Notes: generated by a model from the letters alone, not told the origin. A stretch of 64,000 bases of DNA from Candidatus Latescibacterota bacterium (GCA_965208835.1 OZ242358.1:320001-384000); one strand, 5' to 3'. Numbered from the stretch's first letter, positions 1-24,304 are shown. Made by a program: numbers and translations.

Positions 1-372
1 CACCTTGGCGAGGGTAAACCTCCCGTCCCCGGTGGTTTCGCCCACGTCGATTTTCAGCTTTTCCTTGAGATGCTTCGTGATTTCCCCGGCCCCGCAAAGC
101 GCGCAGGACAGCGTTCCGCACACGTGGATAACGTATTTGCCCACGGGCGCCTTGTGGAACATGGGATAGAAGCTCATCACGCCCGCCGCGTGGGCCGGCG
201 GAATATCCAGAAGGTCCGCGACGTATCTCAGCCCTTCGAGCGAGATGTACCCCCACTCCTTCTGCGCAAGGTGCAGAACCGGAAGGATTGCCGCCTTGCG
301 CCACTCCGGCGGATAGTGCGTGATCAACTCCTCACACTTCTCCCGCGTCTTTTCAGACAGCGCGATCGCCAT
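1..372 (-). CDS. nuoE: NADH-quinone oxidoreductase subunit E (runs off window edge)
   Basis: Translated by hand from ATG at 372 (absent from ORF track): MAIALSEKTREKCEELITHYPPEWRKAAILPVLHLAQKEWGYIS...SFYPMF...IHVCGTLSCALCG. Contains the 2Fe-2S CxxxxC motif and lies downstream of nuoCD. Confidence 0.92.
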   Translation of the reverse strand, partial: MAIALSEKTREKCEELITHYPPEWRKAAILPVLHLAQKEWGYISLEGLRYVADLLDIPPAHAAGVMSFYPMFHKAPVGKYVIHVCGTLSCALCGAGEITKHLKEKLKIDVGETTGDGRFTLAKV

Positions 373-411
373 TTTTGTTGACCCGTGAAAATGATGCCGC
401 GGTGGGGCAAC

Positions 412-2184: not shown

Positions 2185-2237
2185 GCGTTCGCCCAATCGT
2201 CACACGTTAAAAGTCAATTCCTCTGTCGCTTAGTTCC

Positions 2238-2603
2238 TCAGTCCCAATCCAGGCCGCCCTTCCGCCAAACATACGCGAGCCCGAGAACCAGGACACCGAG
2301 GAACACCGCCATTTCCGTAAAAACAAAGCTCCCCTGAGCCAGCAGATCCTTGAAAACGACGGCCCAGGGGTATAGAAAGACGACTTCGATATCGAAGACG
2401 ATAAACAGCATCGCCACAACGTAAAACTTGACGGAGAACCGCAGCCTGGCGTCGCCCACGGGAGGAACGCCCGACTCGTACGGCGATAATTTAACCGGGT
2501 TGGGACGGCGGGGCCCGAACAGATGCGTAATGATCAAACTGACGGCGGCAAACCCGACGGCCACTGCCATCAGAATAACAATCGGAAGATAATCGACCAG
2601 CAT
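2238..2603 (-). CDS. nuoA: NADH-quinone oxidoreductase subunit A
   Basis: Motifs KLSPYESG, FYVVAMLFIVFDIEVVFLYPWAV and KGGLDW; three TM segments; GGAGG RBS upstream. Confidence 0.95.
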   Translation of the reverse strand: MLVDYLPIVILMAVAVGFAAVSLIITHLFGPRRPNPVKLSPYESGVPPVGDARLRFSVKFYVVAMLFIVFDIEVVFLYPWAVVFKDLLAQGSFVFTEMAVFLGVLVLGLAYVWRKGGLDWD

Positions 2604-2682
2604 CGTGCGCCTGGACCTCCCACGTACTCAAGAAGCGGATCCGGAATGGCATTCACTCCGAGGACCGCTTTTCGGCGGTGAA

Positions 2683-2711
2683 AGTATATCACAAGGAGTA
2701 CCAAATGTCAA
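2683..2711 (-). promoter_or_regulatory. Sigma70-type promoter of the nuo operon
   Basis: Minus strand reads TTGACA-17 nt-TATACT, about 80 nt upstream of nuoA. Confidence 0.6.
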
Positions 2712-2939
2712 GGCATTCCCATTGTCATTGAAAGCCCTGCTCACCGGGAGATAAATCGGTCGTACGGGGAGCGGTTTCTCCCTCCGTACGACTGGAGAAT
2801 TCGATCGAATACGACGGGTTGCGGATGGATGAATATCTGTTGACACAGCCTGTAATGTCGCTCATATTTTCGCGACGCACGGTCTCGGCTATGGATACTC
2901 CTTTCACGTTCGCAGACGACTGCCAAGGTCGATAACCTT

Positions 2940-3103
2940 AGAAGCTGTCTTAAAATTCCCAGCGGTCTTTGCGCGCCTGCAAAAGAGCCGGTCGGCGTTG
3001 GTCAAACCCGCCCGTATAGACAAATATGGGCGAATTTTCCCGCCTTGACCGCCACTTTTTCGCTCGCGCTCGGGAACTCACCGGTAATTTTAAAACAGCT
3101 TCT
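2940..3103. mobile_element. MITE family A, copy 1
   Basis: 18-bp terminal inverted repeats AGAAGCTGTCTTAAAATT / AATTTTAAAACAGCTTCT (1 mismatch); near-identical copy at 48237-48392; no transposase. Confidence 0.8.
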
Positions 3104-3118
3104 TACGAGTAACTCGGT

Positions 3119-3697
3119 ATGTTTCGCAGGATTATTTCCATGTTAAATGCGAAGCCCCCGCCGCCTCCTTCGCCGCAGCTGGAAATGCAGCGGGATACGC
3201 TGCAGGACCTGCCGGAAATCAGGGTCCCCGAAGGGTATGGCCTGCGAACCTACCGTTCAGGCGACGAAGCCGGCTGGTGCGCGATCATGGAAGGTAACGT
3301 TGGGCGGGATTGGACTCCTGAACTATGTCGCGAGAAACTCGTTAACGATCCCCGCTTCCACCCCGAAAACCTCTATTTCGCCACCATCGATTCCCGGCTC
3401 GTGGGTTCCGCGTGTGCCTGGAGCCGGGATCTGACCGAGCGAATCGTCGGGGAAGTGCATATGGTTGCCGTACTTGAAGACCAGCGCGGGAAAGGCCTTG
3501 GACACCTCGTCAACGCGGCCGTACTCCACCGGCTCAGGGACCTGGGCTATCGCCAGGCCCACCTGCTGACCGACGACTGGCGCATCCCGGCCATCAAGAG
3601 CTATCTCACCGCCGGATTCCGGCCCCTGCACACCCACGACGATCACGCCAAACGGTGGTCGGACGTTTTTGCCCGACTCGGAATCGAGACTGGTTGA
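3119..3697 (+). CDS. GNAT family N-acetyltransferase
   Basis: Acetyl-CoA motif VAVLEDQRGKGLG and C-terminal AIKSYLTAGF. Confidence 0.85.
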   Translation: MFRRIISMLNAKPPPPPSPQLEMQRDTLQDLPEIRVPEGYGLRTYRSGDEAGWCAIMEGNVGRDWTPELCREKLVNDPRFHPENLYFATIDSRLVGSACAWSRDLTERIVGEVHMVAVLEDQRGKGLGHLVNAAVLHRLRDLGYRQAHLLTDDWRIPAIKSYLTAGFRPLHTHDDHAKRWSDVFARLGIETG

Positions 3698-9598: not shown

Positions 9599-12178
9599 CG
9601 TCGAGCAGGAAATCCGTAATTGGCTTCATCAGCAACAGGATTGGATTCAGGAAGCAGTTGAGAAACTGCTAGCGTCAGGTAGTTTGGAGGATAACGACAT
9701 CCAGGCCATCTCGGATCGTCTTAAGACCCCAGATGGGCAGCAGATAACGACTCACCGCAACTTCGAGGGTATTGGAAATTCCTCCTCATCCACAACCGAC
9801 GTTCACCTCCTTTCAATTGGTGATATCTGCGGAATCGAAAATCTATGTCCGCATCGTCCCCTTACGTTCGGAACCGGAAATCTCGCCGTGATCTACGGAC
9901 CCAACGGTTCGGGAAAATCCGGTTACACGCGCATCCTCAATAGAGTGTGCGGGAAACCGCGTGCGAAGGAGATCAAGCCCAACGTATTCGATAGTCGCCC
10001 TGCGAATCAGCAGTGTCGGATACGTTACGCAATAGGGGAAGAATACCAATCAGTTATTTGGCGACCGAGCGACATTGCGTTAGAGGACCTAAGAGCTGTC
10101 GATATATTTGACGCTGATGCTGCCGCTTTCTACATCAGCGAGGAAAAAGCGGTCTCCTACATGCCTCAGGCGGTAACGATGTTTGAGGCGCTAGCAAGTG
10201 TTTGCGACAGGGTCAAAGAGAAACTCCAATTCGAAAAGAGTCGATTGGTCAGCCAGCTGCCTAATCTGCCGCCAGAATATAGGTCGACTCCTCCTGGTAA
10301 AACATATACCCAGTTGAAACACGACCTCACCGAGCAACAGATCCAGTGTTTGACCAAATGGGGAGACGATAACGAAGAGAAACTTGGAAAATTGACAGAA
10401 CGCCTTAGTGCGGACGACCCGGTAAAGCTGGCGAAGATTAAGCGCAGCACGATAAGCCAACTCGAACAATTAGAATCTCAGTTGACGAACGCGGCGGAAG
10501 CCACAGGCAAGCAACAGGTGGAGGCCCTTCGGACAGCTCGAGAAAACGCAAGTCAGAAACGCAAGATTGCCGAAGAGGCAACCAACTTAAGTAAGCCAAG
10601 CTAGGCGGTATCGGCACCGAAACATGGAACGCTCTATGGGAGGCAGCGCGTGATTATTCGCAAATTGCCTATCCAGGACGAGACTATCCCGTTACAGAGG
10701 ACGACGCGAGGTGCGTCTTGTGCCATCAGAAATTGGCTCACGAGGCACGGAAACGTCTGCAGGAATTCGAAACTTTTGTCCAGGATGTAGTTGAAACTGA
10801 AGCCAAGTCGGCTGAAAACACCTACCGTGAAACGCTGGCAAAACTACCGACCAAATGGGATGACGCGGAGATCCGAACTAGATGTGAAGCTGCCGGGTTG
10901 ACGGAGGGTTGTTGGATCGACAAGCTTAGATCCTTTTGGGACAGAGTGGACGAAACGTGTAAGGATCTCTTGAACGGTGAAAACGATTCAAGAGCTGTCG
11001 CCATAGAACGACCCGATGATCTCTTGTTCGAGATGGCAAAACGTTCCGAATTACTGGAACGGGATGCACTGCAGCTTGATGAGGATGCGGAGAATTTCGA
11101 TCGAGAACAGGCACGCCAAGACAAGCTGAGTTTAGAGGCTTTGCGTTGGACGGCACAGCAAGCGACTGCAATTCACCTCGAGATCGTTCGACTAAAGAAA
11201 ATCGAGGATTATGACGAATGGGAACGACTGGCAAACTCACGGAGAATATCCCTAATGGCTGGACGTGTGGCTGAGAGGGTAGTCACGCAGGCGTATGTGG
11301 ATCGGTTCAATCGAGAACTCAAGCTGTTGGGCGCGTCGCGAATAAAGGTCAAACTAACCAAGACCCAGACGAGAAAAGGGCAAGCACTCCATGGGCTCCG
11401 CCTGAAGGGTGTACAACCTACGACAGAGAATGCTCCCGAAGCGGTCCTGAGCGAAGGAGAGCGTCGCGTCGTTTCTCTGGCGGCTTTTTTGGCCGATGTG
11501 GCAGAGAAGCCCCATGCGGCGCCATTCATTTTTGATGATCCGATCTCGTCGCTGGACCAAGACTTCGAGGGGCATGTGGCGACTCGTCTTGCGCAACTGG
11601 CACAAAGCCGCCAGGTACTCGTGTTCACACACCGGTTGTCTCTCTATGGTGCGATGGAGGATGCCGCAAGAAAGGTTGGTGCAGTTTGGAAAGACAGACA
11701 CCTTCAGCAGTGCTGTATTGAGTCGTTCTCAGGGTCCGCAGGACACCCGGCGGATGACGCTGTCTGGAATGTCAACACGAGGAAGGGCAACAATATCCTT
11801 TTGGAACGCCTCAAAGAGGCCAAGAAGGCCGGCGAAACGGGCGGTTCAAATGCCTACCAGATCCATGCACAGGGGATCTGCACTGATTTTCGCAAGCTTC
11901 TGGAGCGGACCGTCGAAGATGACTTATTGAATCAGGTCGTACGGCGGCACAGAAGGAGTGTAACGACGGAAAATAGATTGAATCCACTTGCAAGTATCAC
12001 ACGTGGAGACTGCGAATTTATCGACAATCTGATGACCAAGTATTCCTGCTACGAGCACAGTCAGTCGATGGAAACGCCGGCTTTCATTCCCGATGAGCCG
12101 GAACTTCGCGCTGACTTGGAGTCGCTGAAAGCATGGCGCGAAGAATTCAGGAAGCGTCCGCCGGAGTCCGGCATATGA
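9591..12178 (+). pseudogene. RloC-like Rad50/SMC-type ABC ATPase with Zn-hook and HEPN-like C-terminus, split by a frameshift at ~10593-10601
   Basis: Walker A GPNGSGKS in ORF 9591-10604. The -1 frame continues AKLGGIGTETWNALWEAAR...RCVLCHQ (CxxC hook), then LSEGE signature, Walker B IFDDPISSLD, FTH and C-terminal FRKLLE...YEHS. Confidence 0.75.
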
Positions 12179-12210
12179 GCAACGTTGGCCGACCTGAGAT
12201 CCTCGCTCAA
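12175..12210 (+). pseudogene. Putative remnant of an hsdR 5' end
   Basis: ATG overlaps the ATPase stop (ATGA); MSNVGRPEILAQ resembles the intact HsdR start MTSVGQKEIRTQ at 20431. Confidence 0.5.
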
Positions 12211-12415
12211 GTGTTTCCAATCTTGATGCCCTGCGGGACCACGCGACTGCCGTATTCTGGTTACATTGTAGCGTGTTCTGTTTCTGGCAAGATACGTAAA
12301 GGCCCGTCGTAAGAGGTTTCTCCTCTCAACTTAATGGGACACGATCCACGACTTGCGAGTTCATCAACTCAAGCGGTCGATTTTAGCGAAAAGTCACGCA
12401 AAAACCCAGATCGTG

Positions 12416-12444
12416 TTGAATGCTAAGCCGATCGTGACTATAAT
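12416..12444 (+). promoter_or_regulatory. Sigma70-type promoter at the head of the inserted defence block
   Basis: TTGAAT-17 nt-TATAAT. Confidence 0.6.
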
Positions 12445-12538
12445 AGTGCAAATATCGTATCAATGAGATTCGCATTGGGGCGCGGAATTACAGATGATCA
12501 CCTAATCCTTAGGCCAGATAATTTAAGCCACAGGCGAT

Positions 12539-12820
12539 CTGGAGAATGGTGCACCAGCACATGTTGGGTATTTCGAAGACGACACTCGTTCCAAGCGCCA
12601 GGCCCGGGAGTTTGAACCCGATGCCTTGTAGCGGATCGACTCCGCGCTCACCGTCTACTTCGATCCGGAACGGGAAGACCTATCGTCAGAACAGGTGAAG
12701 CTGTGGCGACAGGGAATCTGGAATCAGGGTTTCGTCCCTGTGCTATGAAAAGTTCCGCGACATAGGATTGATCTCCAAAACGGCTTCGGCTGTCCGAAAC
12801 GTATAGAGGATGCGGCGCCT
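12539..12820 (+). pseudogene. Degraded gene fragment, possibly the N-terminus of an N6-DNA methylase/type IIG-like enzyme
   Basis: One frame reads ...FEPDAL*RIDSALTVYFD...KLWRQGIWNQGFVPVL*KVPRHRIDLQNGFGCP, with two stops each one base from TGG. Family assignment is from memory and weak. Confidence 0.35.
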
Positions 12821-12859
12821 TCTCTTCGGCCAGGTGTGGCCCATCGAATTGTAATCGTT

Positions 12860-13342
12860 ATGGCGGTAACGTTTTTGGAACATGAGATAGAGTCGTTGAT
12901 ACAAGAGCGCAAGCAACTGCCTCAGGATTGGCGTACCCGGATTCGTCTAAAGTCCAAGCGTGGCCACGAAGAACAACACCTTGATATAGCAGGTGATGCG
13001 GGGAGCGAGTTTCGTCTGATTTTCAGGCAGAATAAGATCAATCCCCTCGACTTCTCAGTTATTCTGGCCGTTCGAGTACCGGGATCAAACCAACTCTTCC
13101 GCCTCCGGCGCTATAATGGCAAAGGCCAAGAACATTCGAACCGCATTGAAGGCGTGAAATTCTATGATTTTCACATTCATGTTGCTACGGAGAGGTATCA
13201 GGAACTCGGAACCAGGGAGGATGCGTACGCCGATCCAACCGACCGTTTCGGAGACTATCACGGTGCCCTTCGTTGTCTGATTTCCGATGTGAATCTTGTG
13301 GTGCCGCCGGACCTCCAAGTTGACCTTTTCGAGGAGGTGTAA
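12860..13342 (+). CDS. Hypothetical protein with conserved-looking His motifs, partner of the DUF1828 gene
   Basis: RLRRYNGKGQEHSN...FYDFHIH; stop is 3 nt before the next ORF, whose GAGGAGG RBS lies in its 3' end. Confidence 0.7.
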   Translation: MAVTFLEHEIESLIQERKQLPQDWRTRIRLKSKRGHEEQHLDIAGDAGSEFRLIFRQNKINPLDFSVILAVRVPGSNQLFRLRRYNGKGQEHSNRIEGVKFYDFHIHVATERYQELGTREDAYADPTDRFGDYHGALRCLISDVNLVVPPDLQVDLFEEV

Positions 13343-13345
13343 GCA

Positions 13346-14122
13346 ATGTCCTTTGAGACCATAGAGCGAGACTTTCACGAGAAGGTCTCGGCTCAGATTC
13401 GGATTGCGGCCGAGGGTATGGAACGCTTCCGCGTGTTTACCCCGTTCATGTTCGACGACGGCGATCATCTGGACATCGTTTTAAGGAAGGACGGTACACG
13501 TTGGGTGCTTTCCGATGAAGCGCATACGTATATGCATCTGACATACGACATCGATGAGAAGGATCTCCATGGTGGCACGCGTCAAAAAATCATCTCAAAT
13601 ACACTTTCCATGTTTCAGATCGAGGATCGCGACGGAGAGTTGATACTCGACGTGCCGGAGGAACGTTACGGTGACGCACTGTATTCGTTCGTTCAGGGGC
13701 TACTCAAGATATCTGACGTTTCGTACTTAACTCGGGCAAGGGTTAGTTCCACATTTATGGACGATTTTCGTACGGTGATGAGTAATGCCCTACCTGAAGA
13801 GCGCAGAGAGTTTGACTGGAGCGATCCTTTAAGGGATCCTCAAGGAAAGTATACGGTTGACTGTCGAGTCAACGGTATGCAGCGGCCCTTGTTCGTTCAT
13901 GCCCTTGCCAACGACGGCAGGACCCGCGACGCCACGATCTCGCTTCATCAATTCGAACGGTGGGAAATACCGTTTCGTTCACTCGCTATTTTCGAAGATC
14001 AGGAGTCCATCAGTCGTAAGGTGTTAGCCCGCTTCAGTGACGTCTGCGAGAAGCAATTCTCCAGCCTCACTGCAAATCAAGAGAGGATAACGCGCTTTCT
14101 GAGCGAGAACATATCGGGATAA
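13346..14122 (+). CDS. DUF1828/DUF1829-like protein
   Basis: FRVFTPFMFDDGDHLDIVL...WVLSDEAHT matches the DUF1828 pattern; the C-terminal half (GKYTVDCRV) is DUF1829-like. Confidence 0.7.
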   Translation: MSFETIERDFHEKVSAQIRIAAEGMERFRVFTPFMFDDGDHLDIVLRKDGTRWVLSDEAHTYMHLTYDIDEKDLHGGTRQKIISNTLSMFQIEDRDGELILDVPEERYGDALYSFVQGLLKISDVSYLTRARVSSTFMDDFRTVMSNALPEERREFDWSDPLRDPQGKYTVDCRVNGMQRPLFVHALANDGRTRDATISLHQFERWEIPFRSLAIFEDQESISRKVLARFSDVCEKQFSSLTANQERITRFLSENISG

Positions 14123-14341
14123 ACCACGATTTAAGTAGACTTGCTTAGATCGCCTTGGCGGAGTTGTGCCGGGACAGGATCCGTTCTGTCAAAAAGGGAG
14201 TGATGCTGCAGCTTCTTCCTAGACGGATGAGCCTGATCGAACTGAGTTTTAGATGGCACAACGGGCCAACGTTAGACACACGGAACCGAGTTTCTTCAAT
14301 TACAGACCTGTGATGCCAAAACACAGATTTCAGGAGGCATT

Positions 14342-15304
14342 TTGATGGTCAATGCCGTAAATAGCCAGCAAGAGTCAGCGCCAACGATTGTTGAGGACGA
14401 ACACTTTCCGGGGCTATATCAGAGTGCCGATCGGTCCTCGATCTCGGCACAGCGGCGCTATATTCACTTTCATCGATGGCATTTATTCTGTCTTATCTTT
14501 GGGAGCGTTAGTGTCGCCATAGCGACGAAATTTCCAGTTGCCGCCACATGGACCTACGTTCTCCTAGCGATCGTTCTGGCAATTGGCATCTTTCTTACTC
14601 TGATATCCCGGGTCCGTCGGGATAATGAAGTTTGGTTTGACTGTCGGGCGATTGCTGAGTCAACAAAGACCGCCACATGGCGATTCATGATGAAGGCTGA
14701 ACCATTCAAGGATGACAGTACGTCTGAGCAGTCATTTCTTGAGAAACTTCGGCAAATTAGAGGGGCGAGACCTTCCAGCCCGAAGGATTTAGCGCAAAAC
14801 CTCGATGCAAACGCTCAATCCGTTAGTGGTTTTATGAATGAAATTCGTCGGAAATCCGTGGAAGAACGGCGGAACCTATATCTTGAGTCGCGGCTTCGCG
14901 ATCAAAAAACCTGGTATTCAAATAAAGCCATCTTCAATTCAAGGAAGGAAAATCGTTGGTCTTGGACAGTTGTTGTGCTACAGATTTCCGCCATTGTTTT
15001 TGCGATTATTCAGGCGTGTTTGAGTGGCTTACCATTAAACGTGGTCCCATTGTTGATGACTTGCGCTGCTTCTGCGGTCGCCTGGAGCCATATGAAGCGC
15101 TACAGTGAGCTGGCTCAGTCCTATTCGCTCGCCGCCCAGGAACTCGGAGATCAGGAAACAGTCGCGTTGGATATAACGGAAGAGGCTGATTTCCTCGAAC
15201 TCGTGGAGCAGGTCGAGGAGACTATCTCTCGTGAGCACACTATGTGGTGTGTACGGCGAAATGTAATTTTCGGTCCAACCCACGCGGACGACGAAATGGC
15301 GTAA
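14342..15304 (+). CDS. DUF4231 / tandem SLATT-domain membrane effector (4 TM)
   Basis: FPGLYQSADRSSISAQRRY + 2 TM + WFDCRAIAESTKTATWRFMMKAEPF; then YLESRLRDQKTWYSNKA + 2 TM + LAQSYSLAAQEL...VEETISREHTMW. Confidence 0.85.
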   Translation: MMVNAVNSQQESAPTIVEDEHFPGLYQSADRSSISAQRRYIHFHRWHLFCLIFGSVSVAIATKFPVAATWTYVLLAIVLAIGIFLTLISRVRRDNEVWFDCRAIAESTKTATWRFMMKAEPFKDDSTSEQSFLEKLRQIRGARPSSPKDLAQNLDANAQSVSGFMNEIRRKSVEERRNLYLESRLRDQKTWYSNKAIFNSRKENRWSWTVVVLQISAIVFAIIQACLSGLPLNVVPLLMTCAASAVAWSHMKRYSELAQSYSLAAQELGDQETVALDITEEADFLELVEQVEETISREHTMWCVRRNVIFGPTHADDEMA

Positions 15305-15353: not shown

Positions 15354-16418
15354 GTGGCGTTCTTCAGATTCAAGCAATCAAGGATGATTAGGATGACAAT
15401 CCAACATTGCGATGGAGCCAAATACCTTAACGTCGAATCCTCTACGGCAATCGAACGAAGCCAGGAGTTATACATCGCTGAGACAACCGTTCAACTACCT
15501 TGTTTCTTTCCTTCAGTTTCGAGCGTGAAGACAAGCCTATCGCCGGTCAGTTACGCTGACTTTCTGACCGTTACTGGTCATCCACTATTTTTAGCCTCTG
15601 CATATGATTTAGCCCATTGTCCTGATGATCAGCGCCCGGGCATGGAAACTGCCCTTAATAGACGTATAGATAGCGGTGCCGTTGTACTTATTGATAGCGG
15701 AAACTACGAAAGCTATTGGAAACAAGATTCCGATTGGGGACCGGCTGATTTTCATAAGGTCGTGCAATCCTATCAACACGATCTCTGCTTCTGTTTTGAT
15801 AACCTGATGCCACCTGACTCTCCGAAATTGATCTCCGACGATGTCGTGGCAGGTGTAACAAGAGATCAGGAGAATGCACAGACAACAGTGCTTCCGATAG
15901 TCCATGGCAACGCGGAAGCACTGCCTGATGCGGCGCGATTAACAGCGGAAAAGCTCTACCCTTTATTGTTGGCTGTCGCGGAACGAGATTTGGGTGAGGG
16001 AATTCTCGATCGGGTTCGCACCGTACGGAGAATCCGAGTAGCGTTAAACGCATTAGGCTTCTATTGCCCGCTTCACCTGCTTGGAACCGGAAATCCGATT
16101 TCAATCATTGCCTATACATTGGCAGGAGCCGATAGTTTTGATGGATTGGAATGGTGTCAGGCGGTCGTTGATCACGAGAATGGCAGGCTCTTACATTTTC
16201 AGCAATGGGATTTGATCCGAAACCAAACAGAGTGGGGTCAATCTCCCGTACTACCGTACGTCCAATCTGTCTTAATGCACAATCTGGTTTTTTATCGCGA
16301 GTTCATGGTAGGGTTTCAGGAAGCACTGTATACCGGAAGAGTTGAATCGTTCGTACAAAAGTATGTAACTAAGGAACAATTGGATCTACTATTGCCTGCT
16401 ATCGAAGGAGTTCAATAG
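15354..16418 (+). CDS. tRNA-guanine transglycosylase (TGT)-like protein, Cap10-like
   Basis: TGT barrel motifs in order: LPCFFP, LIDSGNY, CFD, PIVHG, LHLLGTG, GADSFDG, HNL. Lacks the CxCxxC Zn site. Start may be 15384 or 15393. Confidence 0.8.
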   Translation: MAFFRFKQSRMIRMTIQHCDGAKYLNVESSTAIERSQELYIAETTVQLPCFFPSVSSVKTSLSPVSYADFLTVTGHPLFLASAYDLAHCPDDQRPGMETALNRRIDSGAVVLIDSGNYESYWKQDSDWGPADFHKVVQSYQHDLCFCFDNLMPPDSPKLISDDVVAGVTRDQENAQTTVLPIVHGNAEALPDAARLTAEKLYPLLLAVAERDLGEGILDRVRTVRRIRVALNALGFYCPLHLLGTGNPISIIAYTLAGADSFDGLEWCQAVVDHENGRLLHFQQWDLIRNQTEWGQSPVLPYVQSVLMHNLVFYREFMVGFQEALYTGRVESFVQKYVTKEQLDLLLPAIEGVQ

Positions 16419-16419
16419 C

Positions 16420-17133
16420 TTGGCGCCGAAAAATTTCACGCTACTTTCTATCGAACAAGCGATCCGCGATGTGTGCAACACATTACAAGAACGCCCGACT
16501 GTGTCCTGGAGAAACCACAGCGAAGATGAACTGTGGAGAGAGCTTGTGTCATGTATCCTGGGTAGTCGGGTAAGAGTCAAGGCTGTTAATGCTGCCATCG
16601 AACGCATGAGCAGTATGTGTCTGTTGACGCGACCCCATCCACGCGCTTGTTTTAATCAACTTGAACAGGACACTATAACAGCGCTTACGGGAGGTTATCC
16701 TTTTTTTCGTGTCCGTGCCAATCAGATTCGGCGGGCGGCAGAACACATATACACTTCCCGAGGGTCAATTCTAAACCTGCTTAATGACTTAGATGACGTT
16801 TGTATAGCTCGAAGACTGTTAGTGCGAGAGGTTCCGGGTCTGGGACCGAAACAGGCAAGTCTTTTCCTCCGCAACATATGTTTCGCAAAGTACATTGCGA
16901 TCTTGGATGTACATATACTGACTTATTTGCGGTGGATAGGCATTACAGACTCATCGCTAAAATCGATTCCGAATCTAGGCCAATACGAAGCGTTGGAAGG
17001 CGCCTTTATCGAACATGCTTGTGCATTCGGATACTCGCCTGACCGGTTCGACCTTGCAGTCTGGATTGTAATAAGGGTAGTAAAGGAGGAATCCAAAATT
17101 GCGGATCGTGACTCTTGTATCGGGTGGATTTGA
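16420..17133 (+). CDS. HhH N-glycosylase/DNA lyase (OGG-like), Cap11-like
   Basis: ELWRELVSCILGS, HhH motif VPGLGPKQASLFLRN with catalytic-type Lys, AILDVH with Asp, C-terminal DLAVW. Confidence 0.85.
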   Translation: MAPKNFTLLSIEQAIRDVCNTLQERPTVSWRNHSEDELWRELVSCILGSRVRVKAVNAAIERMSSMCLLTRPHPRACFNQLEQDTITALTGGYPFFRVRANQIRRAAEHIYTSRGSILNLLNDLDDVCIARRLLVREVPGLGPKQASLFLRNICFAKYIAILDVHILTYLRWIGITDSSLKSIPNLGQYEALEGAFIEHACAFGYSPDRFDLAVWIVIRVVKEESKIADRDSCIGWI

Positions 17134-17695
17134 TTCAACTCTTGTGAGCGTGATGGCGAAAGAGGAGGGAGCAGAGCTGTTTCCGCTTTTTGTTGATTAC
17201 GGCCAACTTGCCGTGCGCAATGAATGGGCGGCCTGCAAGCGACTTCACTCACAATTCGGTCTACCACCTGTTACGTACATGGATTTGTCTGGGTTTGGTA
17301 AGACGATCTCGAGTGGTCTCACAGACTGTAGTTTACGTATTAATGAAGATGCTTTTTTGCCGGGTCGCAATCTCCTATTTGTCTTGGCAGGAGCGGCTCA
17401 TGCTATTGATGTTCAGGCAAATAGCATCGCGCTCGGACTACTGAATCCCGCGGATCACATTTTTCCAGACCAAACGAAACAGTTTTTGGAAGAATGTGAA
17501 AGGATGATCGAGGTTGCGATGGGGAGCCGCATTCTTGTCCTTGCGCCTTTACTCGAGTTGTCAAAGCGAGATGTCTTGCTCTTGGCTAGCAAACGAGGGA
17601 TCACACAAGCCTATTCGTGTCATGCTGGTGGTGAAGAACCTTGTGGAGTGTGTATCGCATGCATTGAGATATATAATGCGAAAAAAAGGAGGTAA
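17099..17695 (+). CDS. QueC-like PP-loop ATPase, Cap9-like
   Basis: PP-loop VSGGFDS, VDYGQ, LPGRNLLF, FPD, APLLELSK and Zn site SC...PCGVCIAC. TTG start with AAGGAGG RBS, overlapping the glycosylase gene. Confidence 0.92.
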   Translation: MRIVTLVSGGFDSTLVSVMAKEEGAELFPLFVDYGQLAVRNEWAACKRLHSQFGLPPVTYMDLSGFGKTISSGLTDCSLRINEDAFLPGRNLLFVLAGAAHAIDVQANSIALGLLNPADHIFPDQTKQFLEECERMIEVAMGSRILVLAPLLELSKRDVLLLASKRGITQAYSCHAGGEEPCGVCIACIEIYNAKKRR

Positions 17696-17697
17696 TG

Positions 17698-18201
17698 ATG
17701 GGTGGCATCGGCAGTGGTAGAGGATTGGACCCAAACGAAATGGAGACACTCGAGCAGCGTGTCAGAAGGTCATTTAGGGATCGTGTCGACGAGCACAAAC
17801 GCAATGTGTTTATTAGTTTTACGTCGGATGATCTCAGTGAGGTTAACTTGCTTCGTGCTCAGGCGAGGAACCAAGACAGCAACATTAGCTTTAATGATTG
17901 GTCACTGAGAAAGCCGTTCGATAGTGAGGCAGCCGACTACATCAGGCGCGGCATCAGGGAACGTATTCGCCAATCCTCTGTGACTGTTGTTTATGTGTCT
18001 GAAAACACCGCTGATAGCAGATGGGTCAACTGGGAGATACGAGAGAGCCTTGCAATGGGGAAGGGCATCGTCGCCATGCACAAAGGAAATACACCGCCAC
18101 GAAGACTTCCTAAGGCGATAACCGAAAACAATATCAGTGTCGTACCATGGAGACAGGATCGTCTTGCAAGTATCATTGAGAGGGAATCCGAGAATCGTTA
18201 G
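17698..18201 (+). CDS. TIR domain protein (DUF1863/MTH538, ThsB-like) with Gly-rich N-terminal extension
   Basis: NVFISF, DWSL, IRERIRQSSVTVVYVS and SRWVNWEI with the catalytic-type Glu. AGGAGG at 17687-17692 is spaced for ATG 17698 (MGGIGSG). Confidence 0.9.
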   Translation: MGGIGSGRGLDPNEMETLEQRVRRSFRDRVDEHKRNVFISFTSDDLSEVNLLRAQARNQDSNISFNDWSLRKPFDSEAADYIRRGIRERIRQSSVTVVYVSENTADSRWVNWEIRESLAMGKGIVAMHKGNTPPRRLPKAITENNISVVPWRQDRLASIIERESENR

Positions 18202-18416: not shown

Positions 18417-19778
18417 ATGTTGACACGGCTACGCCTGGAGAATTTCAAATCTTGGGAAAATACAGGTGACATAACGTTTAGGCCTATCACTGGCTTTTTC
18501 GGTACCAATAGTTCTGGTAAGACCAGCCTTTTTCAAGCTCTGTTACTGATGAAACAAACGATAGATTCCCCAGACCCTGGAATTGTGTTGCACTTCGGTG
18601 ATGAGAAAACACTAGTCGACTTAGGCGATTTTGAGAGTGTGGTCCACGAGCATGACACAGACCGAAGTATTAGACTGTCGCTGGGCTGGAACTCAGAGAT
18701 TGATCTGCCATTTCCGGATACGACTAACACTGGGACTCCAACGTCAGGTAACGAAATCGGATTTGATGTTGATCTCGCGGAGGAGAATGTCGGTTCCGGG
18801 AAGTCGCCAATACTCAGAAAAATGGCATATAGTGTCCGTGGAAGGCGGTTTGGTTTGGCGCAAGTACTGGGTAGGAAGGAACACGATTTGTTTGTCAGCG
18901 GTGCCGGCTTGGATAGGTCTCACCGCGTCAGCGATGACGGTCGGTTAGCTCGTTCGATTAAATTTCACGAGTTTAGATATTGGCTTCCTGAGTTTTTCAA
19001 AGACCCGGCTATAATGTATCGTCTCCAATACGCATTGGAGTTGTTCTTAAGGGATCTATTTTATCTTGGACCTCTCCGTGCCTACCCGTCTCGGATCTAT
19101 GCACGGTCTGGAGCACAACCTCGGGACATGGGCCCGGCAGGTGAATTCGCGGTAGACGCAATCCTATCGTCTCGCGAACGTGGCAGGAAGATTAGTCATC
19201 GTCGACGATCTCTAAGTTTCGAGAGATATGTCGCGCAATGGCTTATGCGTCTCGGATTGATATACGACTTTCGCGTAGTGGCATTAACTAAAGGGAGACG
19301 CCTGTTCGAGGTAAGGGTCCGAAAGTCACCCAATTCGGCGGAGGTTCTCCTCACGGACATCGGCTTCGGAGTTTCACAGATACTTCCCGTGTTGGTGCTT
19401 TGCTTCTATGTCCCACGTAAGTCCAAGATCATCTTGGAGCAGCCAGAGATTCACCTGCATCCCTCTGTGCAGGCGGGACTTGCCGATGTATTCGTCGACG
19501 CTTGGAAGCAACGCAATGTGCAAGTATTGTTCGAAAGCCATAGTGAGCATTTACTGCTCAGACTTCAGCGTCGTATCGCCGAGGGAAAAATAAAAAGAGA
19601 TGATGTTAGCCTCTTTTTCTGTTCGATGGACGACCGAGGTGTCTCGACACTCAGCCAACTCGAAGTAGACGATTTCGGGAACATTTCGAATTGGCCGAGG
19701 GATTTCTTTGGTGACCAATTCGGCGAGATTGCTAATATGAATGAGGCTGCGCAGAAGAGGAAGCGAGGTACTGTGTAG
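18417..19778 (+). CDS. ABC/AAA_21-type ATPase with C-terminal DUF3696
   Basis: LENFKS, Walker A GTNSSGKT, YLGPLR, DIGFGVSQILP, Walker B LEQPEIHLHP, ESHSEH, C-terminal FGNISNWPRDFF. Confidence 0.88.
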   Translation: MLTRLRLENFKSWENTGDITFRPITGFFGTNSSGKTSLFQALLLMKQTIDSPDPGIVLHFGDEKTLVDLGDFESVVHEHDTDRSIRLSLGWNSEIDLPFPDTTNTGTPTSGNEIGFDVDLAEENVGSGKSPILRKMAYSVRGRRFGLAQVLGRKEHDLFVSGAGLDRSHRVSDDGRLARSIKFHEFRYWLPEFFKDPAIMYRLQYALELFLRDLFYLGPLRAYPSRIYARSGAQPRDMGPAGEFAVDAILSSRERGRKISHRRRSLSFERYVAQWLMRLGLIYDFRVVALTKGRRLFEVRVRKSPNSAEVLLTDIGFGVSQILPVLVLCFYVPRKSKIILEQPEIHLHPSVQAGLADVFVDAWKQRNVQVLFESHSEHLLLRLQRRIAEGKIKRDDVSLFFCSMDDRGVSTLSQLEVDDFGNISNWPRDFFGDQFGEIANMNEAAQKRKRGTV

Positions 19779-19780
19779 GA

Positions 19781-20278
19781 ATGAGCAAGACGGAAATAGT
19801 AATGGATACGAATGTAGCTATCGTTGCAAATGGTGAAGCCGAACAGGCATGCGAAGACTGCATTTGTGCATGTATTGCAAGATTACGCCATATTATGGAT
19901 GAGTGCCGCCTCTTAGTGGACGACAATTACCGGGTCTTTAACGAATATCAGAGACACCTAAGACGCTCTGGACAACCAGGACCCGGCGACGCCTTTTTTA
20001 AATGGCTCTGGCTAAACCAGGCTAATAACGAACATTGCAGGATGGTTCCGGTGACGCCTCATGAAGATGATGATTGTGGATTCGAGGAATTCCCTGATGA
20101 TCCAAATCTAAGCACATTTGACCGATCTGATCGCAAATTTGTCGCAATAGCGTTGGCAAGCGGTACAGAGCCAATGGTTCTAAATGCCACCGATACGGAC
20201 TGGTGGTCGCACCGGCACGTATTAGGAAGACATGGCGTTGGGTTAGTCTTCATCTGTCCAGAACTGATGATCCGCTGA
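19781..20278 (+). CDS. PIN-like domain protein
   Basis: IVMDTNV N-terminal strand, EY, DRSDRKFVAIA and ATDTDW acidic pattern typical of PIN folds; begins 2 nt after the ATPase stop. Confidence 0.65.
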   Translation: MSKTEIVMDTNVAIVANGEAEQACEDCICACIARLRHIMDECRLLVDDNYRVFNEYQRHLRRSGQPGPGDAFFKWLWLNQANNEHCRMVPVTPHEDDDCGFEEFPDDPNLSTFDRSDRKFVAIALASGTEPMVLNATDTDWWSHRHVLGRHGVGLVFICPELMIR

Positions 20279-20430
20279 AATCGAGATATTTGCTAAAGTT
20301 CATACCTTGGCAGAAGATAATGAAGATTTCTATTCCGCATATGACCAAGGGTGCCACAGTTGTGAAGAGTTGGTCCGGCAGCCGAATTGTAATACAGATG
20401 CACCAAAACTAAGACTCAGAACATTCTCAT

Positions 20431-23400
20431 ATGACCTCAGTCGGCCAAAAGGAAATACGCACACAGCGACAGGTGATCGCCTTCTTCCGGTATGCGCTTG
20501 GATACAACTATCTCGGTGACTGGCAGGATCGCACCGATAACAGCAATATCGAGAAGGGGCTGCTTACCAATTGGTTGAAGCGAAATGGTCACCGCGATAG
20601 GGTAATCAACAAGGTACTGCGTGATCTCGACAAGGCAGGTGCAATCGGCGGCAGTAAGACGCTCTACGATGCAAACCGTGAGGTGTACGGTCTGCTTCGT
20701 TACGGCGTGAAGGTACGACCTGACGTCGGCGAACCGAACGTCACTGTCTGGCTGATCGACTGGGTGAATCCGGCAAATAACGACTTCGCGATCGCCGAGG
20801 AAGTTACGGTGTCAGATACAAACACCAAGCGACCGGACATCGTACTGTACGTTAACGGACTCGCGCTTGGGGTGCTGGAATTGAAGCGCTCGACGGTATC
20901 GGTTGCGGAAGGTATCCGGCAGAACCTCGACAACCAGAAGAAGGAGTTCATCCGGCCGTTTTTTGCCACGGTGCAACTCGTGATGGCTGGAAATGATTCC
21001 GAAGGGTTGCGCTACGGCGTGATCGAGACACCCGAGAAATACTGGCTGCGCTGGAAAGAAACGAACGGCATCCCGGCTGCTGGCGACAATCCTTTACTGC
21101 GCGAGTTGAGCCAGCTCTGCAGCAAAGAGCGATTACTTGAAATCGTACACGACTTCGTCGTCTTTGACGCAGGCGTAAAGAAGATTTGTCGCCACAACCA
21201 ATACTTCGGTGTTCGTGCGGCCCAGGAGCGAGTGAAAAGCCGGGAGGGCGGCATCATCTGGCACACGCAAGGCAGCGGCAAGAGCCTGACGATGGTCTGG
21301 CTGGCGAAATGGATTCGCGAGAACGTCACCGACTCAAGAGTCCTTCTCATCACGGATCGTACCGAGTTGGATGAGCAAATTGAGGCTGTCTTTAAGGGTG
21401 TCAGCGAGGACATCTACCGCACGAAGAGTGGCGCTGATCTCGTGCAGGTGCTAAATAGACCTGACGAATGGCTGATCGGCTCCCTTATCCACAAGTTCGG
21501 TGCAACCGAGGACATCAGCGAAAGAGAAATCGAGGACTATGTCGAGGAGATCAAGAAGAATCTACCCGGTGGGTTCCGTGCCAAGGGCGAGATTTTCGTT
21601 TTCGTGGACGAATGTCACCGCACCCAGTCCGGGAAACTACACGAGGCAATGAAGGCAATATTGCCGGGCGCGATGCTGGTCGGCTTTACCGGCACGCCGT
21701 TACTTAAATCAGACAAACGCCGAAGTATCGAGACCTTTGGTACCTACATCCACACCTACAAGTACGATGAAGCAGTTCGCGACGGCGTGGTACTGGACTT
21801 ACGTTACGAGGCTCGTGACATCGATCAGAATACCACCTCCCAGGAGAAGATAGACCAGTGGTTCGAAGTCAAGACGCAGGGACTGAACGATGTGGCGAAG
21901 GCACAACTGAAGCAGCGCTGGGGCACGATGCGGAAAGTGTTAAGCTCACGGGATCGCCTGGAGAAGATCGTCGCCGACATTCAGATGGACATGGAGATAA
22001 ACGACCGACTCAAGAGCGGTCATGGCAATGCCCTTCTGATTTCTGGCAGCATCGACTCCGCCTGCCGCTTCTTTGAGATGTTTCAGCAGACAGATCTGGC
22101 GGGAAAATGCGCCATCGTCACGTCCTACAAACCGGCGCCAGGAGACATCAAAGGTGAGGAGACCGGCGAAGGACTAACGGAAAAGCTGCGGCGATACAGT
22201 ATCTATCGAAAGATGCTTGCCGCGCACTTCGACGAGCCGGAAGACACCGCAATGAACAAGGTTGAACGGTTTGAACTCGAGGTAAAGAAGCGATTCGTCA
22301 AGGAACCGGGCCAGATGAAGCTGCTGATCGTGGTAGATAAGCTGCTGACCGGTTTCGATGCGCCATCTGCGACATATCTCTACATTGACAAACACATGCA
22401 GGACCACGGGCTTTTCCAGGCGATCTGCCGAGTCAATCGCCTCGACGGCGACGACAAAGAATACGGATACATCGTCGACTACAAGGACCTGTTCCGCTCG
22501 CTGGAGCAGTCAATTCAGGATTATACCGGAGGAGCCTTCGGCGGGTACGACCAAGCCGATGTGAAGGGGTTGCTCAAAGATAGACTCACGAAAGGTCGGG
22601 AACGGCTCGAGGAAACGCGAGAAGCGATCCGGGCGCTGTGCGAACCTGTCGCGCCGCCACGCGACTCTGCGTCATACCGGCGTTTCTTCTGCGGGATCGA
22701 AAGTGGCGATATAGAGGAACTCAAGGAAAACGAGCCGCGGCGTATAGCCCTTTATAAGCGGACTGCGGCGCTTTTGCGAGCTTACGCAAACCTGGCCAAT
22801 GAAATGCAAGAGGCAGGTTATAGTGAAGCCGAAACGCAGCAGATCAGGATAGAGGTTGATCACTACGAAAATGTCCGAAAGGAGGTCAAACTCGCGAGTG
22901 GCGACTACATCGACCTGAAGATGTATGAGCCCGCTATGCGCCACCTCCTCGACACATACATCCGCGCTGAGGATAGCGAAAAGCTCTCGACATTTGACGA
23001 CCTAACACTTGTGCAACTGATTGTCAAGCAAGGTGAAAACGCATTGAATACGTTACCTGAGAGTATCCGCAGCGATCCCGAAGCGGCGGCCGAGACGATA
23101 GAAAATAACATGCGTCGTCTGATCATCGACGAGACGCCCGTTAACCCGAAATATTACGGCAGGATGTCTGAGCTGCTGGACGCTCTGATCCTCCAGCGGA
23201 AGCAGGAACGTCTAGACTACAAGATGTACCTGGCAAGAATTGTTGAATTGGCCGGAAAAGTGACCAACCCTGAAACCGAGACGTCGTATCCATCGGAAAT
23301 TGACAGCAACACACTCAGGACACTATTCGACAACCTACAGGGCGCTACAGTTGGACAGGATAGACCGTATGCCGATTCGGCCATAGAACGTTCCAAGGAT

Positions 23401-23580
23401 GAACTGATCGAAAAGGCGGTCGCGGTCGATCACGCCATCCGAAGTGTAAAGAAAGCCGACTGGCGAGGAAACAAGTTTAAGGAACGGGAGGTCCGCAATG
23501 CTATCAAGTCTCAACTTGGTGACAACGACGACCTCGTATACCAGATATTCGAGATTGTAAAGGCACAGAGTGAATACTAA
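20431..23580 (+). CDS. hsdR: Type I RM restriction subunit R
   Basis: Nuclease RPDIVLYVNG...ELK, Walker A HTQGSGKS, DECH, GFTGTP, LLTGFDAP, QAICRVNR. Confidence 0.96.
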   Translation: MTSVGQKEIRTQRQVIAFFRYALGYNYLGDWQDRTDNSNIEKGLLTNWLKRNGHRDRVINKVLRDLDKAGAIGGSKTLYDANREVYGLLRYGVKVRPDVGEPNVTVWLIDWVNPANNDFAIAEEVTVSDTNTKRPDIVLYVNGLALGVLELKRSTVSVAEGIRQNLDNQKKEFIRPFFATVQLVMAGNDSEGLRYGVIETPEKYWLRWKETNGIPAAGDNPLLRELSQLCSKERLLEIVHDFVVFDAGVKKICRHNQYFGVRAAQERVKSREGGIIWHTQGSGKSLTMVWLAKWIRENVTDSRVLLITDRTELDEQIEAVFKGVSEDIYRTKSGADLVQVLNRPDEWLIGSLIHKFGATEDISEREIEDYVEEIKKNLPGGFRAKGEIFVFVDECHRTQSGKLHEAMKAILPGAMLVGFTGTPLLKSDKRRSIETFGTYIHTYKYDEAVRDGVVLDLRYEARDIDQNTTSQEKIDQWFEVKTQGLNDVAKAQLKQRWGTMRKVLSSRDRLEKIVADIQMDMEINDRLKSGHGNALLISGSIDSACRFFEMFQQTDLAGKCAIVTSYKPAPGDIKGEETGEGLTEKLRRYSIYRKMLAAHFDEPEDTAMNKVERFELEVKKRFVKEPGQMKLLIVVDKLLTGFDAPSATYLYIDKHMQDHGLFQAICRVNRLDGDDKEYGYIVDYKDLFRSLEQSIQDYTGGAFGGYDQADVKGLLKDRLTKGRERLEETREAIRALCEPVAPPRDSASYRRFFCGIESGDIEELKENEPRRIALYKRTAALLRAYANLANEMQEAGYSEAETQQIRIEVDHYENVRKEVKLASGDYIDLKMYEPAMRHLLDTYIRAEDSEKLSTFDDLTLVQLIVKQGENALNTLPESIRSDPEAAAETIENNMRRLIIDETPVNPKYYGRMSELLDALILQRKQERLDYKMYLARIVELAGKVTNPETETSYPSEIDSNTLRTLFDNLQGATVGQDRPYADSAIERSKDELIEKAVAVDHAIRSVKKADWRGNKFKEREVRNAIKSQLGDNDDLVYQIFEIVKAQSEY

Positions 23581-24304
23581 GCCGAAATCCTATACCATTG
23601 AGATACGTGGGACTGTGGTAGACGTCGTCCTCAAGGACATCAAGAACCTTCATATCGGGGTTTACCCGCCGAACGGCAGGGTGAGGGTGGCAGCTCCGCT
23701 CAGTCTCGGTGATGACGCGGTGCGCCTGGCAGTCATTTCTCGCCTCGGTTGGATTGGCCGCCAAAAGGAGAGATTCAAACGGCAGGATCGGCAATCCCAG
23801 CGAGAATTCGTGACAGGTGAAAGCCATTATTTCGAGGGCCGACGCTACCGGCTCGATGTAACGGAACAGAGCAGTCCACCTTCGGTTCGTCTACTCAATA
23901 ATTCTACCCTAGCGTTGTGCGTTCGACCGGGATCCGACCGGCATATTAGAGAGGCCTTGCTGGATCGATGGTACCGACGCAATCTTCGTGATCGCCTTCC
24001 AGGAATTATTGCAAAGTGGGAGCCCGAAATGGGCGTGCAGGTCAATGAAGCCCGCATACGAAAGATGAAGACCCGATGGGGAACCTGCAACCCCGCTGCT
24101 CGCCGAATTTGGTTGAATCTCGAACTTGCAAAGAAGCCTTCGGCCTGCATTGAATACGTCGTCGTGCACGAGATGGTCCACCTGATTGAGCGTCATCACA
24201 ACGATCGTTTTCGGAAGATGATGGACAAATTCATGCCACTCTGGCGTTTCCATCAGGATGAACTCAACCGTGCGCCGCTCGCGCATGCAGACTGGCGCTA
24301 CTAA
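23570..24304 (+). CDS. M48/DUF45 (YgjP-like) metal-dependent hydrolase
   Basis: MKTRWGTC and YVVVHEMVH (HExxH); overlaps the hsdR 3' end, as is common for type I RM loci. Confidence 0.9.
   Translation: MNTKPKSYTIEIRGTVVDVVLKDIKNLHIGVYPPNGRVRVAAPLSLGDDAVRLAVISRLGWIGRQKERFKRQDRQSQREFVTGESHYFEGRRYRLDVTEQSSPPSVRLLNNSTLALCVRPGSDRHIREALLDRWYRRNLRDRLPGIIAKWEPEMGVQVNEARIRKMKTRWGTCNPAARRIWLNLELAKKPSACIEYVVVHEMVHLIERHHNDRFRKMMDKFMPLWRFHQDELNRAPLAHADWRY

Follow-up and report, generated by a model that had tools for sequence, protein, structure and literature searches.

A glycine-tailed TIR protein encoded beside a Cap9-like QueC homologue in a Latescibacterota Thoeris operon is a predicted acceptor of N-terminal deazaguanylation

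A Toll/interleukin-1 receptor (TIR) protein of the ThsB type, encoded in a 64,000-nucleotide stretch of Candidatus Latescibacterota bacterium DNA (GCA_965208835.1, OZ242358.1:320001-384000; the whole stretch is called the window below), is the last gene product of a five-gene anti-phage operon that also encodes a SLATT membrane protein, a Cap10-like TGT homologue, a Cap11-like OGG homologue and a Cap9-like QueC homologue. The TIR protein begins MGGIGSG, and we consider it probable that, within this Thoeris operon, it is N-terminally deazaguanylated on Gly2 by the Cap9-like QueC and that the Cap10-like TGT binds the modified tail. N-terminal deazaguanylation is the best-supported reading of the locus and agrees with every computational check that was run. 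The system and the proposed mechanism are already in print as a prediction, in passages of a recent preprint (bioRxiv 10.64898/2025.12.03.692087), and the suggestion of the preliminary description of this DNA that such a TIR is a new substrate class has hence been anticipated. What is added here are counts that show how well the tail is conserved and how strictly it is linked to QueC, a start-codon call, a mapping of active-site residues and a set of exceptions.

The QueC, TGT and OGG homologues correspond to Cap9, Cap10 and Cap11 of type IV cyclic oligonucleotide-based antiphage signalling systems (CBASS), of which 49 operons have been counted, about a third of the systems containing Cap11 (Wassarman et al., 10.1101/2025.04.06.647259). 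In Rhizobiales type IV CBASS, Met1 of the CD-NTase CdnD (N-terminal peptide GGSGGSFGSGFDPR) is removed and Cap9 ligates 7-carboxy-7-deazaguanine to the Gly2 amine, forming an N-terminal 7-amido-7-deazaguanine (NDG) adduct of +176 Da, and the modified tail is held in the active site of Cap10 (10.1101/2025.04.06.647259). An N-terminal extension that starts with M(G/S)G(G/S)GG is present in all type IV CD-NTases, and a G2D substitution in CdnD or deletion of the motif abolishes defence, as does an M29E/L104E/S135K mutant of the Cap9 cleft in which helix alpha-1 of CdnD docks (10.1101/2025.04.06.647259). Thoeris operons with cap9, cap10 and cap11 were reported in December 2025 as 'suggesting a similar mechanism', and AlphaFold3 models gave interface predicted template modelling (ipTM) scores of 0.79 for ThsB-Cap10 and 0.62 for ThsB-Cap9, with CD-NTase-like interactions; in the same passages, the pairing of TIR and SLATT proteins is called type VII Thoeris, with the canonical cyclic ADP-ribose (cADPR) signal (bioRxiv 10.64898/2025.12.03.692087). 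The TIR N-terminal glycine motif is absent from the available main text of this preprint, in which 'N-terminus' occurs 0 times, 'N-terminal' twice in unrelated contexts and 'glycine' once, for the Cap2 C-terminal tail (10.64898/2025.12.03.692087). TIR or Thoeris is mentioned 0 times in the available text of PMC13329287, a study of QueC clusters, and a literature search for QueC together with TIR domains and Thoeris returned only reviews.

The elements of the TIR gene on which the argument depends are the following.

17687..17692, plus strand: Shine-Dalgarno sequence AGGAGG, serving ATG 17698
17698..18201, plus strand: ThsB-type TIR, 167 aa, MGGIGSG start (Pfam ThsB_TIR, PF08937, 1.5e-24; PADLOC ThsB 1.6e-18)
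17698..17730, plus strand: Gly-rich N-terminal tail, residues 1-11, proposed acceptor; predicted local distance difference test (pLDDT) below 50 for residues 1-10
17731..17778, plus strand: N-terminal helix, residues 12-27, predicted docking element for the QueC-like enzyme (TIR model and complex model)

The glycine tail is conserved throughout nearly all relatives of this TIR. The database search gave 836 matches (protein clusters) at E <= 0.001 among 867 candidates, and 119 of the 120 homologues listed begin with MG (111 MGG, 8 MGS), the last one beginning with MVG. At the DNA level, 88 loci were collected. A single-protein scan of genomes supplied 8 (two Latescibacterota, a Binatia, a Hydrogenedentales, Methanoregula, Methanothrix and two uncultured archaea), and an alignment scan of metagenomes confirmed 472, of which the 80 best were taken. 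A scripted search upstream of the TIR core for M/V-G-[G/S] was applied to all 88. The tail was found in 84 of the 88, 83 times with ATG and once with GTG (L071), which amounts to 84 of the 86 readable loci, as the TIR start is cut by the contig end in L011 and L067. Since the start was chosen by this motif, the presence of Gly2 in 72 of 72 distinct peptides is true by construction, and 84/86 is the meaningful figure. The invariant Gly2 that the preliminary description expected among syntenic homologues is therefore found, with two exceptions, L006 and L008. In L006 (1-200), a TIR of this clade is 5'-truncated and follows a stop and unrelated sequence, without QueC and without tail, which could reflect a rearrangement or an assembly join; the second exception is taken up below.

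In the predicted structure of the TIR (mean pLDDT 74), a disordered tail (residues 1-10) is followed by a helix (12-27) and the first TIR strand (35-40), and the best matches in the PDB are the B. cereus TIR 8fz9, EcThsB 8wcf and ThsB 6lhy. W112-E113 and E116 are invariant among relatives, the two glutamates being candidates for the catalytic Glu of ThsB proteins. The tail fits the CD-NTase motif M(G/S)G(G/S)GG, from which the MGGIGSG of the window departs at positions 4 (Ile) and 6 (Ser); Gly occupies position 4 in 54 and position 6 in 62 of the 72 distinct relatives. Three plasmid-borne type IV CBASS CD-NTases begin MGGSGG and continue into a helix (e.g. ...LSQLEQEKQE, compared with ...METLEQRVRR in the window TIR), and the likeness of TIR and CD-NTase N-termini past the glycine run is weak. 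Searched on their own against the PDB, the N-terminal 37 residues matched nothing at E up to 10 and so gave no sign of sequence-level homology to the CdnD tag. The tail is proposed to be the acceptor, with the alpha-amine of Gly2 free once Met has been removed.

Translation of the TIR most probably begins in a way that exposes this glycine. The AGGAGG at 17687-17692 precedes the TAA stop of the QueC-like open reading frame (ORF) at 17693-17695 (...gaaaaaaAGGAGGtaATGATGGGTGGCATC...), and two in-frame ATGs follow, one at 17695 that overlaps the TAA and sits 2 nt past AGGAGG, and a second at 17698 that sits 5 nt past it. Read from 17698, the protein begins MGGIGSGRGLDPNEMETLEQRVRRSFRDRVDEHKR (also MGGIGSGRGLDPNEMETLEQRVRRSFRDRVDEHKRNVFISF..., MGGIGSGRGLDP...), and the NVFISF strand begins at residue 36, so that the TIR core is preceded by 35 residues. 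The pattern AGGAGG-N4-9-ATG occurs six times in the window compared with 2.3 expected (4 of 100 shuffles reach six), and four of the six sites are gene starts of the surrounding island (13332, 14332, 17687 and 18404). As the spacing at 13332, 14332 and 18404 is 7-8 nt, a distance of 2 nt to ATG 17695 is odd and one of 5 nt to ATG 17698 acceptable. In L001 and L002, the closest loci (89% and 87% identity), the corresponding sequences are ...aaaggagataaagATGGGC and ...aaaggagatagaaATGGGC (also ...ggagataaagATGGGC, ...ggagatagaaATGGGC), and neither has an extra ATG equivalent to 17695; none of the 120 homologues listed begins with MM; and the modal gap between QueC stop and TIR start is 2 nt (52 of 77 loci), as at 17698. 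Hence, by sequence comparison, the conserved start is ATG 17698. The positions of AGGAGG and of both ATGs, the extension of about 35 residues and the start MGGIGSGRG, all given in the preliminary description, stand.

The tail is tied to QueC. In phmmer searches for neighbouring genes that used the proteins of the window as queries (E <= 1e-4, so that divergent forms may have escaped), QueC was found directly upstream of the TIR in all 77 loci with at least 300 nt of upstream sequence, in bacteria as well as archaea, the tail beginning 1-3 nt past the QueC stop in 68 of them. Where the sequence reaches far enough, OGG was detected in 55 of 57 loci (all but L068 and L079), TGT in 48 of 50 (all but L058 and L080) and SLATT in 25 of 34, and the gene order of the operon recurs in related loci. 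As a control, the TIR core alone was searched in 168 genomes of the window's phylum, giving 30 loci. The tail was present in 5 of 5 TIR loci with an intact QueC upstream, the window included, and in 0 of 24 without QueC upstream, a table that is descriptive rather than a statistical test because these genomes are kin. The remaining locus (L098:751-1836, from a genome of the same genus) is a decayed copy, a deletion remnant of the same operon, in which an in-frame deletion has joined a 5'-truncated QueC (the initial ~20 residues, with SGGxDS, are gone) to the TIR from residue 55 on. Ordinary ThsB proteins likewise do not carry the tail: when 150 representatives were found with the TIR core and 41 with an unmatched core N-end were dropped, none of the 37 without an extension among the remaining 109 starts with MG, while 27 have a 28-45-residue extension beginning MG[GS], five begin with MG and then another residue, and 40 have other extensions, two of these containing an MGG further in, after a start that was probably mis-called. 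A second TIR on a Rhizobium plasmid, located beside a DUF4231 protein and without QueC, begins MTYDVFISH and has no tail. The link between this TIR and the adjacent QueC proposed in the preliminary description is thus supported, the neighbours being Cap9-, Cap10- and Cap11-like.

The four genes preceding the TIR gene were, like it, assigned by Pfam and PADLOC family matches, and all five are closely packed on the plus strand.

14345..15304, plus strand: SLATT membrane effector with SLATT_3 and SLATT_1 (Pfam SLATT_3 3.2e-33, SLATT_1 5e-32)
15354..16418, plus strand: TGT-like protein, Cap10-like (Pfam TGT 1.3e-10; PADLOC TGT 6.7e-23)
16420..17133, plus strand: OGG-type HhH DNA glycosylase homologue, Cap11-like (Pfam Ogg-HhH 3.7e-22)
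17099..17695, plus strand: QueC-like ATP-dependent ligase, Cap9-like, 198 aa, TTG start (Pfam QueC 2.9e-34; PADLOC QueC 1.3e-27)

For the SLATT gene, ATG 14345, which lies 7 nt past the AGGAGG at 14332-14337, is a more likely start than the TTG 14342 of the ORF call. None of the nine ORFs from 13346 to 23580 matches a CD-NTase family, and the TIR occupies that place. The operon is a Thoeris-type system, consisting of a TIR and a SLATT protein (the pairing called type VII), with a type IV CBASS accessory module.

The QueC-like protein has the residues expected of Cap9. Its best single-sequence match in the PDB is Cap9 (9nto_B, 6e-13, vs 1.2e-10 and 4.5e-10 for canonical QueC), and its residues S8/D12/S13, L87, R90, F122 and D124 align with Cap9 S18/D22/S23, L83, R86, Y115 and D117 and are invariant in 14 relatives. 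Cap9 has been described as QueC cluster 9, a group of short proteins (median ~185 aa) with the motifs LxSGGxDS, Y/FxQx5E, RN, YxDCxxxF, PFx4K and CEx6CxxCxxC, in the available part of PMC13329287. With 198 aa, the window protein has all of these motifs at matching positions, differing from the published forms by Phe for Tyr, Gln for Cys, Leu for Phe and His for Glu: LxSGGxDS (L6-S13), YxQx5E (Y34-E42), RN (R90-N91), FxDQxxxF (F122-x-D124-Q125-xxx-F129), PLx4K (P150-L151-x4-K156) and Cx7CxxCxxC (C174-x7-C182-xx-C185-xx-C188), each invariant in the 14 relatives. Because Cap9 retains the ancestral active site, the conserved residues show competence and not specificity, and only 67% of Cap9-cluster genes adjoin a CD-NTase (PMC13329287, in the part available). 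The operon gene is the third QueC paralogue of its genome, which also encodes two canonical QueC proteins (208 and 197 bits), QueD, a housekeeping TGT and a weak, below-cut-off QueE-like match; judged from this gene content, a 7-deazaguanine substrate is probably available in the host. The canonical QueC genes are located at C1:2893962-2894591 and C1:4749717-4750334, one of them ~14 kb from the only QueD match.

Modelling of the QueC-TIR complex, which the preliminary description had suggested, supports a binding of the TIR N-terminal helix by the QueC-like enzyme, as far as a predicted interface can. The complex scored 0.65 (0.65, 0.63 and 0.66 in the individual runs) compared with 0.02 for the best of three controls, passing a mark that 58 of 80 solved complexes attain, along with 2 of 110 mismatched pairs, a calibration that holds only roughly because our own alignments were used. 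The runs agree in at least 74% of contacts, with a partner pLDDT of at least 76, and the confident interface comprises TIR residues 9-10 and 15-33 and QueC residues 1, 3, 19-25, 108-109 and 146-165. In the alignment, QueC M19 and S109 correspond to M29 and L104, two of the three mutated cleft residues of Cap9, and both lie in this interface; the equivalent of the third, S135, is G142, which is not among the listed interface residues.

The TGT-like protein, in turn, resembles Cap10. Its best sequence match in the PDB is Cap10 9ntn_A (3e-07 with the single sequence; 1.9e-11 with a profile, for which it was the sole match), and the same entry is the top fold match of its model (E 4.0e-13, template modelling (TM) score 0.63). 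D114-S115, H241 and D263 align with the nucleobase-reading D73-S74 and the catalytic H226 and D248 of Cap10 and are invariant in 12 relatives and three CBASS-linked Cap10 proteins. As profile searches left the middle of Cap10 (D122, K154) unaligned, three plasmid-borne CBASS Cap10 homologues were aligned instead, and by this alignment D149 is probably the equivalent of Cap10 D122, another nucleobase-reading residue. No cysteine follows C268 in the alignment, i.e. none is present in the C-terminal third, where the zinc site of canonical TGT enzymes is located. This site is also absent from Cap10 (Wassarman et al., 10.1101/2025.04.06.647259), and the TGT-like protein shares this feature. The first ~31 residues of the TGT-like ORF were modelled with low confidence, and the true start may lie further in.

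Several relatives of the TGT-like protein are fusions. A fused effector was considered for the long TGT ORFs of loci without a SLATT match and set aside; the ORFs turned out to encode N-terminal fusions of TIR_2 to TGT (L052:3245-4684, L059:3195-4640 and L070:3205-4659, as well as Rhizobium/Agrobacterium plasmids including L089:4584-5987, where the proteins are annotated 'TIR domain-containing protein') or of Schlafen AlbA_2 to TGT (L068:577-2136 and L079:316-1872). Operons with a fused TGT are mostly without a SLATT match upstream.

Based on these likenesses, we hypothesize the following sequence of events. The TIR would be translated from ATG 17698, and methionine aminopeptidase would expose Gly2, Met being generally removed by this enzyme before Gly. 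The Cap9-like enzyme would dock on the N-terminal helix of the TIR, activate 7-carboxy-7-deazaguanine with ATP and join it to the Gly2 amine, the product being an NDG adduct as known for CdnD. The Cap10-like protein may then bind the modified tail and hold or prime the TIR; it might also transfer the tail to some target, with the OGG-like protein reversing this step. Upon infection, the TIR would make a signal derived from nicotinamide adenine dinucleotide (NAD) that opens the SLATT membrane effector, and the infection would be aborted. These steps are drawn from homology, save for the start, which has comparative support, and Met removal, which is general knowledge.

A number of observations weigh against this mechanism, in which the modification itself is inferred. 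The TIR of L008 (Methanothrix, 36% identical) adjoins QueC yet begins MIETADTE..., without a glycine tail, and the counts of loci given above include close kin and are not independent. For the QueC-like protein, a profile built from 14 TIR-linked relatives is nearer to canonical QueC (2pg3 3.2e-24, 3bl5 1.1e-23) than to Cap9 (3e-20); this reverses the single-sequence order, so that a ligase and a preQ0 synthase are not told apart by sequence alone. In the complex model, TIR residues 1-8 are not among the confident contacts and Gly2 is not placed in the active site, and the pass may partly reflect likeness to, or memory of, the solved Cap9-CdnD complex. For the TGT-like protein, the fold match to a canonical TGT is nearly equal to that with Cap10 (6.2e-13 and TM 0.60 vs 4.0e-13 and TM 0.63), the nucleobase-reading K154 of Cap10 has no evident equivalent (the column holds L180, with an invariant H184 nearby), and the acidic helix with which Cap10 clamps CdnD is not conserved.

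The subgroup to which L008 belongs deserves separate mention. In this archaeal, Methanothrix-type group (L008:830-1483; representatives P0163 and P0228), the helix is kept (...LEDMAREEIRK...), the glycine tail is absent and the core is altered (VFLIFR); the system has either decayed or functions without an acceptor.

Among the alternatives, the one that survives best, although we regard it as unlikely, is that the QueC-like and TGT-like proteins do recognize the tail, with a chemistry other than NDG formation: they might attach a different 7-deazaguanine derivative, grip the tail non-covalently or carry out an additional transfer unlike that of type IV CBASS. The loss of the K154 equivalent and of the CdnD-binding acidic helix, the nearness of the QueC family profile to canonical QueC and the fusions of TGT-like proteins to TIR_2 or Schlafen AlbA_2 in some relatives, which suggest added functions, are in its favour; against it, all nucleobase- and ATP-contacting residues of Cap9 are kept, as are four of the six residues named for Cap10, and the tail matches the published acceptor motif. 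Less probable still is that the QueC/TGT/OGG trio places 7-deazaguanine in nucleic acid beside an independent TIR-SLATT pair, the glycine run being a plain flexible linker. Homologues of OGG act on DNA, the QueC-like protein has a full canonical active site and the TGT-like protein keeps the catalytic Asp/His pair, all as such a model would have it. However, independent modules sit poorly with the strict co-occurrence, QueC being upstream in 77 of 77 loci and the tag present in 0 of 24 TIRs without QueC; a linker need not begin at residue 2 nor match the acceptor motif of CD-NTases; the TGT-like protein, like Cap10, lacks a cysteine in the C-terminal third where the zinc site would lie; and housekeeping QueC and TGT are already encoded in the genome. 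We attach next to no weight to a start at ATG 17695, giving MMGG... with the first Met retained and no free Gly amine, since this codon, while in frame, the first ATG and the start of the ORF call, lies only 2 nt past AGGAGG vs 7-8 nt in neighbouring genes and is absent from the closest relatives, with an MM start in 0 of the 120 homologues listed.

Deazaguanylation of Gly2 remains the reading we prefer, and it can be carried further, into territory that we hold to be possible and rather doubtful. The tail and docking helix might form a portable handle acquired by two unrelated classes of signal-making enzyme, CD-NTases and TIRs, with the Cap10-like transglycosylase, taken to be catalytically intact, planting the entire TIR onto nucleic acid in the place of guanine via the free N9 of the deazaguanine and the OGG-like protein removing it, so that infection would be sensed as a change in this linkage. 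The fusions of TGT to the nucleic-acid-binding AlbA_2 domain of Schlafen or to a second TIR fit a nucleic-acid target of this kind.

Compared with known systems, the window has the same gene content as the Thoeris operons with cap9/cap10/cap11, that is, a ThsB TIR, an effector and the three accessory genes, and binding is predicted both by the ThsB-Cap9 model of the preprint and by our QueC-TIR model; the preprint passages differ in that they name one example organism and no TIR glycine motif (10.64898/2025.12.03.692087). With type IV CBASS, the operon shares the three accessory families (Cap9- and Cap10-like genes plus a Cap11-like gene), a type of membrane effector that CBASS also employs and, on the enzyme that makes the signal (here the TIR), the same N-terminal acceptor motif with a Cap9-docking helix behind it. 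In contrast to type IV CBASS, the signal-making enzyme in the window is a TIR and not a CD-NTase, the second messenger should accordingly be derived from NAD instead of being a cyclic oligonucleotide, the gene order differs, and K154 and the acidic clamp helix of Cap10 are not kept. Type VII Thoeris likewise pairs a ThsB-type TIR with a SLATT-domain membrane protein (ThsH), whereas it is described, in the passages available, as a two-gene system without the QueC, TGT and OGG homologues found here. QatC of the QatABCD system is likewise a QueC-family enzyme, and its proposed target is the N-terminal glycine of a partner protein, QatB (PMC13329287; PMC13279940, PMC13639016, PMC13376578). However, QatC is described in the parts of these sources consulted as long and remodelled with other motifs, while the window enzyme is 198 aa long with canonical motifs at Cap9-like positions, and its operon is without QatA, QatB and QatD.

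If TIR proteins are tagged in this way, the nucleobase-protein tag would be a general priming device in the second-messenger immunity of bacteria, rather than being peculiar to a single type of CBASS. The TIR clade is large, with 836 protein clusters and at least 472 metagenome loci in bacteria and archaea, far above the number of type IV CBASS operons, and it may be the better system for finding the target of Cap10. Being small (167 aa) and having a strictly conserved tail, the TIR is also convenient for mass spectrometry and structural work.

The operon is set in a defence island (window positions 10718-14122 and 18417-24304). An AAA_13/SMC-like ATPase, DUF6978 and DUF1828 (PDC-M24B) proteins are encoded upstream of it. 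On the downstream side lie a HEC-03B/HEC-03A pair, which also follows the TIR in L001 and L002, and genes for a type I restriction R subunit and a YgjP-like metallopeptidase. Among the related operons, the Binatia locus has an extra ORF for a 108-aa ThsB_TIR fragment between the SLATT and TGT-like genes (L003:4383-4706; PF08937 4.5e-13), and the Rhizobium plasmid locus L089 carries, on the opposite strand, a separate set of TIR, DUF4231 and TRAFs-binding-domain genes (84-3213) beside its TIR-TGT/OGG/QueC/TIR operon. In the latter locus, the tagged TIR is followed by a 340-aa protein with a weak Mrr_cat match (1e-4), which may be the effector of that operon.

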